Positions 21,914 to 62,601 of a stretch of 64,000 nucleotides of DNA are shown piece by piece. A program made the position numbers and the translations under genes. Under the pieces are notes generated by a model that saw only the letters and a list, made by a program, of their open reading frames with translations, did not search any database and had not been told where the DNA came from. Every line of letters begins with the position of its first letter. Position 1 is the stretch's first letter. The stretch comes from an uncultured virus (IMG/VR IMGVR_UViG_3300028888_000118) (Duplodnaviria > Heunggongvirae > Uroviricota > Caudoviricetes): IMG/VR virus record IMGVR_UViG_3300028888_000118; one strand, 5' to 3'.

Positions 21914-23134
21914 TTAGAGTTTTACGGTAAAGACCGATGGCGTACTACACACCTCTACACAGTCTGAGAATATTTCCTCATTCCATGCTTCTTGTTTTGT
22001 TAGGTATTTTCTAAGTATATTCAGAGAACCGTTTATGTCAGCATTTATGTTTCCGAATTTCTTAGATTTATACATCCCACGACTTTCTCTATATCCAGAT
22101 GGACTAAACAAGTCATCGTCAATAGAATATGTTGGAATATAATCTTGATCTAAGAAACTGCACTTTGATGTATATGATTCTTCTTGAATGATAACTTTAA
22201 TACCAACTAACGCGCATTTGTATTGTAGCATACTAATAAACATATTAAACGGAATTTGAACAAAGTTCTGCGTAGTGTCTTTTCTCATATGCGTGTCTTG
22301 TTTCCAACCATTGCTGTGTCCGATAACTAATGTATCGACACGGTTTTCAACTAATTGATTCACAACATAAGTTGAGGACTTGTGCATATAGTCTTTTATC
22401 TTATTATTCCGTTTTCTGTTTATTGCGTACATTCTGTTTGTCCATCTTTGATGTCGTGACATATTATTCGCAATTGTTTTATTGTAATACTGGTTTATAG
22501 ATTTTAGCGGTCTACCATTTATTATAATTGGTCTGAAAACATTTGATGTAACGGAAGCTAGGTTATTAACGCCAATATCAATAGAAGCAAATCGTTCATT
22601 CCTCTGTGATTCAGAAAATTCACTACGCTCATACCCAAGTTCTACTACAATATAATTCTTACGAGGAACTATTCTTGCAAAAGAGACACGTTCAACCTTT
22701 GTTTTTATTTTGAAACTAACACCAGATAACTTAATGTATCCTTTTTCAACATTTCTATTATTTTGTGATATTGCCTGATCTGTATATGTTAAGACTTGTC
22801 TGCCGTATGTTTTGTCAAGGTAATCTGGTATGTTTATTCGTTCTCCACTCTTCTTAACTTTAAGATGTGCGAAGAATGATTTGAAATTATGATCTACAAG
22901 TTTTTGTACTTGTTGTGCAACTTTTCTAGGCAATGCTTGATAATCGTTTGGAAACAAATCATTGGACATCTTATTTATATCAGTATATTTAAGGTATTCT
23001 TTTGTATCAAAGTAATGCTTCCTAACATGATACAGAGTTACATTATATAAGTTCTTTGCTAGAAAACATAGATTATCAAGTTCTTTATAATATTTAGAGT
23101 TCTTTGAATATTGATGCTGTTCAACCAGAATCAT
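21914..23134 (-). CDS. tnpB: TnpB RNA-guided endonuclease (RuvC)
   Basis: AKNLYN, SIDIGVNN, YMHK.S, VIG...GWKQ, EESYTSKC, NADINGSLNI. Confidence 0.92.
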   Translation of the reverse strand: MILVEQHQYSKNSKYYKELDNLCFLAKNLYNVTLYHVRKHYFDTKEYLKYTDINKMSNDLFPNDYQALPRKVAQQVQKLVDHNFKSFFAHLKVKKSGERINIPDYLDKTYGRQVLTYTDQAISQNNRNVEKGYIKLSGVSFKIKTKVERVSFARIVPRKNYIVVELGYERSEFSESQRNERFASIDIGVNNLASVTSNVFRPIIINGRPLKSINQYYNKTIANNMSRHQRWTNRMYAINRKRNNKIKDYMHKSSTYVVNQLVENRVDTLVIGHSNGWKQDTHMRKDTTQNFVQIPFNMFISMLQYKCALVGIKVIIQEESYTSKCSFLDQDYIPTYSIDDDLFSPSGYRESRGMYKSKKFGNINADINGSLNILRKYLTKQEAWNEEIFSDCVEVCSTPSVFTVKL

Positions 23135-59220: not shown

Positions 59221-59429
59221 ATTTATAACTAATGAAATCATGTAATGTAAACCATCATAGATTCTCCTGCAAATTTCTTATAGTGCGAATTATTATAAAG
59301 TTCTTTATGACGGATTTTCTTATTCCATAATCTCTTAAACATTTTTCTGGATGTCTTTTCTCCGTCTTTAATCCACCACTTGTATTTAGAGCCTTTCATA
59401 ATTCACACTCCTTTTGTTATTTAATATGA

Positions 59430-59684: not shown

Positions 59685-59712
59685 ACATATATAATAAATA
59701 TTTGTTAAATGA

Positions 59713-59794
59713 TGCGCCTGACAGGACTTGAACCTGCACGGATTTCTCCACCAGAACCTAAATCTGGCGCGTATGCCAATTTCGCCACAGGCGC
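59713..59794 (-). tRNA. tRNA-Leu(TAG)
   Basis: CCAGA-TTTAGGT-TCTGG, long variable arm. Confidence 0.93.
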
Positions 59795-59884
59795 GTATAA
59801 AATGTTGTGCTTACATGACAGCCTAGAGGTATTCCATACGATCATTAGATCAACCCGACAAACCTTTAATCTAGGATTTTGTAA

Positions 59885-59995
59885 AACTTTATCCTTTGTG
59901 CTTATAATGCTTAATCTTTATATATACCGTTTTCCAACGGTTTTTGAACTGTAAGATTTTAACTTTCAACTTTGAGATTTAATACTTGAACTTTA
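59885..59995 (-). repeat. 7-nt-periodic degenerate (Y)AAAGTT repeats
   Basis: taaagtt caagtat taaatct caaagtt gaaagtt aaaatct tacagtt caaaaac, a hairpin, then about five more units. Confidence 0.75.
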
Positions 59996-59996
59996 T

Positions 59997-60062
59997 ATGT
60001 CATATGTGGAGTCGAACCACACCGCCGGATTTCCAGTCCAGAGTTTTACCGAAATTATAACA
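59997..60062 (-). ncRNA. 66-nt miniature tRNA-like domain (GGA anticodon) inside the large ncRNA
   Basis: TGTTATA/TATGACA acceptor, CTGGA-CTGGAAA-TCCGG, TGTGG-TTCGACT-CCACA; reduced D arm and 3-nt variable loop. Confidence 0.7.
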
Positions 60063-60241
60063 TTCTTTCCTATTAAAGAAAGTTCAAATCTCCGTTACCT
60101 CAATTGTTGGCGAGGTTTCAGTGACTTATTAAATCTCTCTGTTAACGCACAAAGAAAGCGAATCTAAATTTATGGTTTTCGTCATGCAAGCACAATGTAT
60201 TTCAAAAATGCTTTCCTAACATTTCCGACAACTTTATTATA

Positions 60242-60892
60242 TCAGCACTCAAATTCAATTACTGTGGTAGCATTTGAAGTTGAGAGTGCCGCGTCAACTT
60301 TCGTGTTGAAGAAATCATATTCTTCTCTAAGTGCTGTGATTTTGTCCTGAACCTTATTCGGATCAATAAGATCAATTGTGTTTGCTTCGATGTAAGCGTT
60401 TCTTGCGGATTCAATCACATCAGCCTGAATACCTTCCTTGTTTCCAAAAAGTCCGGTAACGTAGCGATCTGCATAATCAGTAATTGCGTCATTAGTCTTC
60501 TTGATTGTGTTCATGCAAACCTTATATTGACTTGCAAGTGTGTTTGCGAGTTTCGCAACAAAGTCAATACCGACATTCCGGTACTCGATCAGTTCAGCAA
60601 CGGTCATTGTAACAGTTTCACCGTTATCTCGTGCAATCGTCACCTCTGTAATTGCATTGCTCTTTGTAATGGCTCTCTTAATGGCATTTCTTCTCCTAAT
60701 GAGGTCTTCCACCTTCTGCATTGCTGACTTCATGGATACACTGTAATCAGCAATACTCATACCATCAATTTTGGTATTTGAGTGCTTAGTAGTGTTTACG
60801 TAGACACTCTGAGACATTTCCTTCTCAATTCTGCTTGCAAGTGTTTTAAGTTCCGCAAGACCCTCGTGAACTGTCATTGTGTACTTCTGCAT
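60242..60892 (-). CDS. 216-aa alpha-helical/coiled-coil protein, ncRNA-associated candidate
   Basis: MTVHEGLAELK.L..RI, LI.RRNAIK.AI..SNA.T.V, TVAELIE, IDP, VDAALS.SNA.T.I; strong AGGAGG RBS. Confidence 0.8.
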   Translation of the reverse strand: MQKYTMTVHEGLAELKTLASRIEKEMSQSVYVNTTKHSNTKIDGMSIADYSVSMKSAMQKVEDLIRRRNAIKRAITKSNAITEVTIARDNGETVTMTVAELIEYRNVGIDFVAKLANTLASQYKVCMNTIKKTNDAITDYADRYVTGLFGNKEGIQADVIESARNAYIEANTIDLIDPNKVQDKITALREEYDFFNTKVDAALSTSNATTVIEFEC

Positions 60893-60942
60893 AATAAATT
60901 CCTCCTAAACTTTAATTCCTTACTAGCTTCTTGCTAGCATAA

Positions 60943-61018
60943 TGGTGGTTAGAGTCCGAGTCGAACGAACTTCTGCCGATTTTCAGTCGGCGGCACCAAC
61001 CGTGTATACCATCTAACC
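60943..61018 (-). tRNA. tRNA-Phe(GAA)
   Basis: GCCGA-CTGAAAA-TCGGC; encoded CCA. Confidence 0.88.
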
Positions 61019-61037
61019 GTTTCTTGATTACAATCAT

Positions 61038-61066
61038 AGTATAACATATTTTCTTAGTTTTGTCAA
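61038..61066 (-). promoter_or_regulatory. promoter for the tRNA-Phe / coiled-coil gene / ncRNA / tRNA operon
   Basis: TTGACA-17-TGtTATACT. Confidence 0.85.
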
Positions 61067-61403
61067 TACCTTTTCGTGCCAAAGTCATTACAAGTTTTCA
61101 TCTTGTTTTTGTGCAACATCACTAGACTGTAATTGATCAATAAGAGATTTAAGCCTTACAATCATTTCCTGCTTGTCATAAACAGAAATATCAAAATTCT
61201 CTGGAATAAAGATCATGTTCGGTTTCTTGTCTGATATACTTTCAATGTGTTTCTTGATAGCGTCACACATAGCATAAATTTCTGATTTGGTATATACTAA
61301 ATCTGTTTTACATGTTACGCACATTACTTCATTGTCTTTTGGTAAAGGTACATTTTTGAATTCAAATTCGTACATAATATCACACCTCTCGTTTATTTTG
61401 ATA

Positions 61404-61899: not shown

Positions 61900-62601
61900 T
61901 TACACAAGCATATCTTTAACTTTCTGATCACTGAGCCATGTAGGAAATTCTTTAAGCAAATCCTGATAAGTAATGTTTTCTGCCTTACTTACTGCAAAAA
62001 AGTCAGCATTATCCACGTACCGACCTTCCAGATTATCTAGGCTTTCCAGATAGCTAAACTTTGAATCACCGAGTCCTACAAATTGCCAGAAAATAGGTTT
62101 CTTTGCGGCTTCAATAATTGTTGCTGTTGTATCCGTTTTATCATTGTCGAAATTATCTCCATCTGTAATAAAAATAACATATACAGGCAACTTCTCATTT
62201 TTATAAAATTTAATGATATCTCCCATAACTGGGCTATAGTTTGTTCCGCCCATGCTCTTTCCTTTTGTTTCCCGCTTAATGTATCCGTCCAGATTATTCA
62301 GATTTGCATCTTTAAGTCTACGACAACTATCAGAAAAAAGCCACGTTTCCATACTACCATCATCATCAAAGTTCATTGCAAGCGGTAGCATTTTTTCAAC
62401 AACTCTCTGAACAGTTCCGTTGCTATACAACCAATCCATAGAACCGCTGTAATCAAGAACAAGTGCTACTTTTGCTTTGAGATCAATTAGTGGCTTCTTG
62501 TCAAGACATACTTTATGTACTTCCTCTTTTGCAAGATTCACTTTTTGTACAAGACTTGTTTCATCATTGTCTTTTTTCTTGAACATATCAAAAATTCCCA
62601 T
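61900..62601 (-). CDS. vWA-domain protein (TerF/TerY-type)
   Basis: MIDAS DYSGSM, FDDDG, GGTNY.PVM, FITDG, PIFWQFVG.G, LD.L.GR.VDNA.FF. Confidence 0.88.
   Translation of the reverse strand: MGIFDMFKKKDNDETSLVQKVNLAKEEVHKVCLDKKPLIDLKAKVALVLDYSGSMDWLYSNGTVQRVVEKMLPLAMNFDDDGSMETWLFSDSCRRLKDANLNNLDGYIKRETKGKSMGGTNYSPVMGDIIKFYKNEKLPVYVIFITDGDNFDNDKTDTTATIIEAAKKPIFWQFVGLGDSKFSYLESLDNLEGRYVDNADFFAVSKAENITYQDLLKEFPTWLSDQKVKDMLV

Follow-up and report, generated by a model that had tools for sequence, protein, structure and literature searches.

A conserved seven-nucleotide register in a structured non-coding RNA of phage and cyanobacterial tRNA-gene arrays, and its possible role as a protein docking platform

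What keeps a run of degenerate seven-nucleotide units in exact register, between a protein gene and a tRNA gene, in the genome of a phage? We addressed this question in a 64,000-nucleotide stretch of DNA from an uncultured virus of the Caudoviricetes (IMG/VR record IMGVR_UViG_3300028888_000118; the window, in the following). The heptads lie on its minus strand in a gap of 447 nt without genes (59795-60241). The gap belongs to a tRNA array (12 tRNAs according to ARAGORN) and has a 216-aa open reading frame (ORF) on one side and tRNA-Leu on the other. Based on their distribution and conservation, we conclude that the heptads are the selected core of a stable non-coding RNA (ncRNA) of ~390 nt that occurs in mobile tRNA-gene arrays of phages and cyanobacteria. 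As to their function, the best explanation we can offer, to which we give slightly less than an even chance, is that they form a platform on which a repeated protein module docks at regular intervals, most likely the protein that is encoded next to the RNA and is predicted to self-associate.

In the window, the heptads are arranged in two blocks, here called array 1 and array 2 (Table 1). The eight units of array 1 agree letter for letter with those listed in an initial annotation of this DNA, and the hairpin that it had placed after them, ACCGTT-GGAA-AACGGT, was found as well. The autocorrelation of the first 56 nt gave z values of 3.1, 3.8 and 4.15 at lags 7, 14 and 21, and the best lag was reached by none of 2000 dinucleotide shuffles. 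Over the full 111 nt the signal was weaker (z = 3.2 at lag 7; maximum over lags reached by 92 of the 2000 shuffles), and Tandem Repeats Finder called the tract as 2.5 copies of a period of 21. Array 1 aligned without gaps with array 1 of homologues, while the number of units in array 2 is four in cyanobacterial homologues and five in the window and its closest phage relatives. Besides, the hairpin between the blocks is one of the lineage-specific linker insertions; few rows of the 73-row alignment A3 (the window and loci L004, L066 and L201) have an insertion of any kind at this place.

The 216-aa protein gave access to the homologous loci. Among 764 candidates, 531 homologues were found at E <= 0.001, and tblastn gave matches in 710 deposited phage genomes, T5-like phages included. 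With an alignment of 32 homologues (A1) as query, 240 loci were collected from metagenomes, IMG/VR and GTDB genomes, and the non-coding DNA just downstream of the gene proved homologous to the window gap in most of them (over 200 loci). They include cyanobacterial chromosomes (Moorena, Lyngbya, Calothrix and others), metagenome-assembled genomes of Clostridia, and the cultured phages Vibrio phage pVp-1 (T5-like) and C. difficile phage phiCD211. A comparison of the window locus with deposited phages at the DNA level gave a match confined to the tRNA-Leu part, and scans of viral contigs with an exact 20-nt pattern and with a single protein query gave no matches.

The 7-nt period is a property of these homologues too. 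Among periods of 4 to 12, period 7 scored best in 175 of 187 distinct downstream regions, and in 172 of the 187 none of 100 dinucleotide shuffles made for each locus reached the observed periodicity score. This autocorrelation test took the place of a crude counter of runs with AA at positions 2-3, which did not discriminate (median of 7 on the forward strand, 5 on the reverse strand and ~4 in shuffles). The boundaries of the RNA were set by profiles; boundaries from regular expressions had by themselves served 116 of the 187 loci. The logo of 182 distinct sequences has C or U at position 1 (C in about half of the units), A at position 2 (97-100%) and position 3 (82-97%) and U at position 7 (85-100%). 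Positions 4-6 carry little information, position 4 being mostly A, position 5 mostly G and position 6 free, and several of the variable columns hold 0.0-0.3 bits. The conserved element is thus not AAAGUU, as the initial annotation had it, but U-Y-A-A, which recurs every 7 nt. There are 8 + 4 copies of it, the two blocks being shifted by one base against each other; in the clade of the window the blocks hold 8 + 5 units.

The same annotation had proposed that a register kept while the sequence drifts reflects selection on spacing, and both indel counts and divergence rates strongly support this. Of 184 distinct homologues, 149 have no indel in array 1 (49 profile positions) and 127 have none in array 2, whereas the length of the linker between them ranges from -9 to +70 nt. 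The register is held even though the identity of the adjacent protein drops to 27%, and the heptad core is common to phages of Proteobacteria, phages of Firmicutes and cyanobacteria. Relative to third codon positions of the neighbouring gene, the rate of divergence is 0.65-0.73 times at heptad positions 4-6, about 0.18-0.2 times at the core (positions 7, 1, 2 and 3) and ~0.2 times in the 3' domain of the RNA, these values being descriptive and taken from close pairs that are not independent of each other.

Could the period belong to the DNA rather than to an RNA? Some DNA-binding proteins use 7-bp direct repeats, and an iteron, a centromere, operator-like 7-bp sites or a slippage repeat of the genome-wide heptamer type would be candidates. 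Cyanobacterial genomes are indeed rich in exact heptamer arrays, some of which lie just past the ncRNA (at about 3436-3480 in L186, and about 330 nt after the gene in L194 and L205). These exact arrays are distinct from the degenerate UYAA heptads and are probably the cause of weak matches to the covariance model R1 (heptads plus 3' domain) mentioned below. The heptads themselves differ from such STRR-like heptamers, as their units are degenerate, R1 finds a single copy in the 64-kb window, and the array is fixed in number and place after one gene family, between RNA helices that covary and contain G-U pairs. Moreover, a profile of heptads and 3' domain matched 230 of the 243 sequences obtained via the protein, every match being on the strand of the gene, and the array is present in RNA contigs. 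We therefore assign a DNA-level element or a slippage repeat only a slight probability.

The evidence that the tract belongs to an ncRNA, as had been supposed from the window, comes from covariation and from RNA contigs. Folding of the 447-nt gap gave z = -4.96 against shuffles. Two alignments, A2 with 47 and A3 with 73 sequences, gave the following order of elements: an end-closing helix P1 (11 bp in the alignment), a CGAAAAC motif, a variable insert made of hairpins or of a tRNA depending on the locus, array 1, a short linker, array 2, the junction UCGAUAAAAUCC, the hairpin domain P3, GGCUG and the 3' strand of P1. RNAalifold paired P1 and P3 and left both arrays open. On the structure that we named, for which the covariation statistics were computed, 86.6% of cells are paired versus 74.5% in shuffles, a value reached by none of 500, and the covariation score is 0.368 versus 0.07-0.12 with slid partners. 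In P1, double changes occur in 11 of 11 pairs, with 90.7% of cells paired, and since its conserved pairs include G-U they make sense only as RNA of the ncRNA strand. In P3, a single pair was found as AU 27, GC 10 and UA 8 times, and the outer helix has 99.6% of its cells paired. A helix P2 (AUGG/CCAU) around the insert, which was also considered, has 56.8% of its cells paired in A2 and was hence not established.

Scanned against Rfam at any threshold, the RNA of the window gave no family, a sub-threshold tRNA-like element being the only signal. This element is the insert, which scored 23.2 bits against the Rfam tRNA model (RF00005), under the gathering score of 29, and received no ARAGORN call; by either measure, a cloverleaf of at least 29 bits or an ARAGORN call, it is not a tRNA.

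RNA contigs from three metatranscriptome studies cover the ncRNA (X1, 59835-60181; X2, 59892-60221; X3, 59806-60211; X4, 59806-60181) and jointly span 59806-60221 as separate pieces, with zero depth at 59222-59369 and 60924-61200 in all four runs. Such contigs give no strand, ends or level, and what they establish is the presence of the ncRNA as a separate piece in RNA libraries. The depth of contig X1 was 67 on the ncRNA versus 5.4 for a contig of the upstream ORF, although contig depth is a poor measure of level. The end at 59806 shared by X3 and X4, which come from two studies, hints at the 3' end of the ncRNA, while the primary transcript may start slightly upstream of P1, near 60211-60229. 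The single contig X2 carries adapter letters at both ends, at 59892 and 60221, which suggests a discrete fragment of 330 nt with its 3' end exactly between two heptads of array 2.

A consensus scan for promoters and terminators gave no minus-strand site in the gap, and its counts were no higher than in shuffles. The end of the 216-aa ORF, including its stop codon, is overlapped by an extended -10-like box, TGATATAAT, on the minus strand at 60236-60244. The 5' ends of the RNA contigs (60181-60221) follow about 15-40 nt downstream of this box, and the ncRNA may have its own promoter there. The scan, for which a -35 box is required, did not list it.

Table 1. Features of the ncRNA locus in the window, in the order of the RNA, followed by the flanking genes
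Feature	Position	Strand	Evidence or remark
ncRNA, from P1 5' strand to P1 3' strand, 391 nt	59805-60195	minus	Fold z-score, homology, RNA contigs
P1 5' strand, TTGTGCTTGCATGAC	60181-60195	minus	Inverted repeat of 15 nt, 93% complementary
CGAAAAC motif directly past P1	60175-60181	minus	Nearly invariant in alignment A2; within the consensus of RAGATH-27
Degenerate tRNA-like insert	59998-60061	minus	Without D arm; loop CUGGAAA; T arm GGTTCGACTCC
Heptad array 1	59940-59995	minus	Eight in-register units: TAAAGTT CAAGTAT TAAATCT CAAAGTT GAAAGTT AAAATCT TACAGTT CAAAAAC
Inter-array linker hairpin	59926-59941	minus	6 bp, GGAA (GNRA) loop; lineage-specific
Heptad array 2	59885-59920	minus	Five units: TAAAGAT TAAGCAT TATAAGCA CAAAGGA TAAAGTT; the third has 8 nt
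Conserved single-stranded junction, ACAAAATCC	59874-59882	minus	AAA and TCC invariant or nearly so
P3 hairpin domain (CCTAGA ... TCTAGG), then GGCTG	59822-59875	minus	Covarying pairs
P1 3' strand, GTCATGTAAGCACAA	59805-59819	minus	Inverted repeat and covariation; ends of contigs X3 and X4 at 59806
Gene of the 216-aa partner protein	60242-60892	minus	Without Pfam family; PHROG 1491 label; co-occurs with the RNA
tRNA-Leu(tag)	59713-59794	minus	First tRNA past the ncRNA; tRNA-array context

The coupling between this RNA and the 216-aa protein is strict. In 121 cyanobacterial genomes of one order, R1 gave 13 matches of at least 125 bits in 12 genomes, and a profile of the protein found it in exactly these 12 genomes and in none of the 109 others. 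In 12 of 13 cases the RNA follows the gene immediately and on the same strand; the thirteenth copy is on the neighbouring contig, at a contig break. The R1 scores are bimodal, being either at least 125 bits or at most 58 bits; because of this, and because the genomes concerned lack the protein, the many weak matches, which occur in 29 further cyanobacterial genomes, were treated as low-complexity or heptamer-repeat noise. We read the RNA as an obligate genomic partner of the 216-aa protein. Two copies of the pair were seen on very large phage contigs, one of 349 kb (L029 and L031) and one of 332 kb (L039 and L041), and in one cyanobacterial genome (G001, contigs C16 and C83).

The protein itself belongs to no family in Pfam, NCBIfam or PADLOC, a profile search of the PDB returned nothing meaningful, and the ESM Atlas returned unnamed clusters only. 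It matches PHROG 1491, labelled 'tail fiber protein', which judging from the context is probably an inherited mislabel. Its AlphaFold2 (AF2) model, with a pLDDT of 83.3, consists of helices and a small sheet. Foldseek gave no match to it at E <= 0.001; the sole fold match was 3kdq, a structure of unknown function (Foldseek E = 3.4e-3; VIA Z 10.1, rmsd 7.2, 151 aligned), and the remaining rows of the fold searches were generic helical matches. An internal duplication, considered on account of recurring MTV..E and SNAxT motifs, was unsupported by BLASTP of the two halves (E = 4.7).

A model of four copies predicts that the protein self-associates, with a score of 0.54 versus 0.00 for the best of three controls, at least 81% of contacts shared between runs and a partner pLDDT of at least 80. 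Among proteins of solved structure, 20 of 30 pairs of one chain and 1 of 23 single chains attained the corresponding mark; these counts apply only roughly here, as our own alignment and four copies were used.

Pairing of the heptads was examined as well. In a test of 5-bp helices within and between the arrays, the best pairing excess was 0.064, versus 0.228 for P3, the largest, and no covariation was found for array-internal or array-array helices. Because of this one observation we infer that the heptads are probably single-stranded in vivo.

Taken together, we tentatively propose the following scheme. Each heptad presents an invariant U-Y-A-A followed by three drifting bases, and the 12-13 sites, set at an exact pitch of 7 nt in two blocks (8 + 4 or 5), could act as a molecular ruler. 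On the heptads, one protein module, in the simplest case the adjacent protein, would dock in several copies side by side, to yield a ribonucleoprotein of defined size that is held between P1, the insert (a tRNA or tRNA-like) and the hairpin domain on the 3' side. That one heptad might be the footprint of one subunit of the adjacent protein, a possibility already raised for the window, is suggested by the strict co-occurrence together with the predicted self-association.

Several observations weigh against this proposal. Ten of the 187 loci have no significant lag-7 signal (more than 5 of 100 shuffles reach the score). Folding of single sequences does not keep the arrays open, with a mean pairing probability of 0.57 versus 0.62 elsewhere, the arrays being less paired than the rest of the RNA in 70 of 83 RNAs, and the invariant A and U columns could pair without any covariation (heptad 1 with heptad 7 in up to 0.82 of cells). 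The predicted protein interface is a symmetric dimer and not a head-to-tail ring or filament. The protein family is mildly acidic (median pI 5.6 and net charge -3 in 32 homologues), which speaks somewhat against a heptad footprint of the adjacent protein, and the 216-aa protein matches no known RNA-binding family or fold. In addition, two to three cyanobacterial copies have a broken protein gene next to an intact RNA of 125-146 bits, namely truncated matches at G001:C83:377-766 and G087:C265:41655-42017 and a gene with a stop inside at G007:C1:5949149-5949775; these may reflect either gene decay with retention of the RNA or assembly errors.

The pairing probability of the arrays bears on a further possibility, namely that the role lies in the RNA alone, with A-rich heptads pairing mutually or making A-minor or other tertiary contacts, inside one RNA molecule or between several, as in self-assembling ornate RNAs, so that the period would reflect RNA geometry. 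The consensus heptads contain the self-complementary AAGCUU, and GOLLD and ROOL, large RNAs associated with phages and tRNAs, form multimers of RNA alone (PMC12286853). On the other hand, no helix between the arrays covaries, the C found at position 1 in about half of the units and the free position 6 break the palindrome, and the heptads of the window are themselves not self-complementary. We consider this explanation rather improbable.

The conserved partner of the RNA also bears on the suggestion, made as an alternative in the initial annotation, that the repeats are a polymerase template copied into repetitive DNA or RNA. Telomerase and some defence reverse transcriptases do copy tandem short repeats. 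No reverse transcriptase was found in the 21 window proteins scanned or among 85 neighbouring ORFs of 60 loci, and the partner, a helical protein that belongs to no known family, is not one either; the template role is thus left without support, and we give it next to no weight.

The docking proposal can be kept with a different occupant of the heptads, and here the genomic context of the pair is of importance. At least one tRNA lies within 2.5 kb in 138 of 187 distinct loci and at least three in 104 of them, and the tRNAs have the orientation of the gene in 1144 cases to 1. In 28 of the 187 loci ARAGORN found a tRNA nested within the ncRNA insert, between the CGAAAAC motif and array 1 (L171, L231, L223, L186 and 24 others). 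Many different anticodons are represented, the types being Gly, Gln, Asp, Phe, Thr, Glu, Asn+Ser and others, so that not the identity but a tRNA-shaped insert is conserved. The cyanobacterial loci of the pair resemble the long tRNA arrays which are described as horizontally spread and induced under translational stress (PMC8421152); the passages considered note embedded protein genes in such arrays, the RNA-protein pair not being among those they mention. The 85 neighbouring ORFs comprise eight PARG-like macrodomains, two NADAR proteins, one Tpt1 and four PhoH proteins, three of them fused to PIN. The PARG-like (L179, L235, L213, L080, L207, L222, L224 and L209), NADAR (L186 and L215) and Tpt1/KptA (L217) enzymes, all of them connected with RNA repair or with nucleic-acid-bound ADP-ribose, are often neighbours of cyanobacterial ncRNAs, and the PhoH neighbours belong to gut-phage loci.

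In such a setting, the heptads could dock another partner, such as a host RNA-binding factor, a nuclease or an RNA such as tRNA loops, and serve as a sponge or decoy in translation-rescue or counter-defence modules, while the adjacent protein would bind P1, P3 or the tRNA-like parts, or be a chaperone. The location in arrays of co-oriented tRNAs, the genes for RNA repair and ADP-ribose removal among the neighbours, the induction of long cyanobacterial arrays by translational stress (PMC8421152) and the acidity of the adjacent protein all agree with such a partner, and the alternation of C and U at position 1 would fit pairing to G. No such partner was identified, however, and a host factor would have to be universal, given that the heptad core is kept from phages of Proteobacteria to cyanobacteria. 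The strict coupling to the protein is more simply explained by a direct partnership, and docking of another partner therefore appears rather unlikely to us.

The locus belongs to a large phage with ~35% G+C, whose genes are nearly all read from the minus strand. Among its products are clamp-loader subunits, a ClpB-like ATPase, an Rnl1-type RNA ligase and TnpB, and the nearest relatives of its proteins, at 35-46% identity, are in Firmicutes phages and phages from gut samples. The TnpB is of the IS605 type (OrfB_IS605 with a Cas12f1-like TNB domain; 21914-23134, minus strand). Among the tRNA genes sits a vWA-TerF-like protein (PF10138, E = 5e-64; 61900-62601, minus strand), and a VWA protein was likewise found after the ncRNA of L035. 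A tRNA-Phe(gaa) at 60943-61018 on the minus strand was called by ARAGORN and is absent from the Rfam scan at gathering threshold. Other Rfam motifs near homologous loci (L169 778-907; L117 4565-4644; L138 3630-3837 and 4514-4570; L012 4122-4189) were RAGATH-36 (135.7 bits), skipping-rope (71.6 bits), a sub-threshold group I intron, an HDV-like ribozyme and int-alpA.

If the docking platform for a repeated protein module is correct, a very widespread gene pair gains an identity, its protein being at present annotated as 'hypothetical' or, apparently wrongly, as 'tail fiber protein'. It would mean that an RNA-protein particle with an exact ruler of 7 nt is part of the supernumerary tRNA arrays which serve phages and cyanobacteria under translational stress, and it would provide a handle on the role of the non-tRNA components of such arrays. 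As the pair is present in cultured phages, the idea is directly testable. A further proposal, which we regard as doubtful, is that the pair constitutes a new class of ribonucleoproteins of mobile tRNA arrays, in which a fixed 'UYAA ruler' of 12-13 sites would set the number of protomers and, in the boldest version, the free bases would form a non-contiguous code.

How does this pair relate to known systems? A literature search, which did not reach the original description of RAGATH-27, found no account of the RNA-protein pair or of the heptads. RAGATH-27 (RF03100), an orphan candidate small RNA, corresponds to the 5' domain of the same RNA class and its consensus holds the CGAAAAC motif. Of 20 loci scanned, two have it above its gathering score immediately behind the gene of the homologous protein (L143, 91.3 bits; L103, 88.0 bits), and 2 of 8 loci have it below that score (L015, 62.8 bits; L138, 56.6 bits). 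Its model of 86 positions covers an unpaired 5' leader and one hairpin, and the closing helix, the heptads and the 3' domain lie outside it. The region 59700-60300 of the window gave no match to this model even at E <= 10, membership requiring 76.1 bits, and by homology the window RNA is best described as a relative of the RAGATH-27-bearing RNAs which is not itself a scorable member. If our interpretation holds, the orphan RAGATH-27 would be extended to a full-length RNA with a partner.

A parallel in logic is VIPR, in which the vrRNAs of all seven types carry 9-16 copies of pentanucleotide repeats GGY/NN and act with a RAMP protein (10.64898/2026.04.26.720920), with constant and variable parts alternating in tandem repeats along which the protein, Vipr, oligomerises into a filament (10.64898/2026.04.26.720920, 10.64898/2026.04.26.720927). 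In both cases, a phage encodes a protein next to an RNA whose short tandem repeats combine constant with variable positions. The pair described here differs in that its unit is 7 nt (UYAA+NNN), with a U-Y-A-A core in place of tandem GGY/NN pentanucleotides, present in 8 + 4 or 5 copies in a closed, structured RNA and in the context of tRNA arrays. No RAMP (Cas7-like) fold is among the Foldseek or VIA matches listed for the helical AF2 model, the best being 3kdq. By its repeat unit, the window RNA is not a member of VIPR and is analogous to it in logic only.

The same analogy raises the possibility of a non-contiguous guide, in which U-Y-A-A would anchor protomers, while a nucleic-acid target would be specified jointly by the variable triplets of the units. 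The alternation of constant and variable parts follows the logic of the vrRNAs (10.64898/2026.04.26.720920), and several variable columns are nearly free of information. The lean towards A and G at positions 4 and 5, however, makes the units look like degenerate copies of YAAAGYU and not like hypervariable slots, and the variable positions evolve more slowly than third codon positions. There is one array per genome or window and not many guides, and the protein is not recognisably a RAMP among the fold matches listed. A gapped scan (gaps of 0-4) of the 64-kb window gave no match above permuted controls, which is a weak test that covers self targets only. We judge a guide function very improbable; in the boldest version of our proposal, the pair would be a 7-nt counterpart of VIPR built on an unrelated fold, a programmable particle in tRNA-centred conflicts between phage and host.

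A second parallel is offered by TRAP and HutP, ring proteins that read periodic RNA triplets, (G/U)AG, the HutP sites being UAG every 7 nt. The likeness lies in an oligomer that recognises a short, conserved sequence recurring at constant intervals, the spacers being free. TRAP and HutP sites are cis-acting leader elements that control attenuation, whereas the UYAA repeats at 7 nt belong to a separate, stable RNA and the protein has no Pfam family.

The YrlA Y RNA, which acts with Ro60/Rsr, has paired ends and a tRNA-like module and is encoded beside its protein partner, also in phages. The end-closing stem, the tRNA-like module and the adjoining protein gene of our RNA resemble this arrangement, but Y RNAs have no heptad arrays, no TROVE domain was found in the 21 window proteins scanned, and the window gave no Rfam Y-RNA match. 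Type III toxin-antitoxin systems of the ToxIN type have RNA repeats of ~34-36 nt upstream of an endoribonuclease toxin gene; here, the repeats are 7 nt and downstream of the gene, and PADLOC gave no match for the window protein.

GOLLD and ROOL are described as phage-associated RNAs that adjoin or contain tRNAs (PMC5737381) and that assemble into RNA-only multimers (PMC12286853). They differ from the RNA studied here in being much larger, RNA-only assemblies without a partner protein or heptads, and their Rfam models gave no match in the window or in 28 homologous loci. Overall, these comparisons would place the heptads among the tandem-short-repeat RNA platforms, of which, if our reading is correct, they would be a second, unrelated example of an RNA scaffold beside the TRAP/HutP sites and the VIPR vrRNAs, with a unit, a protein, an RNA frame and a genomic context that are new.

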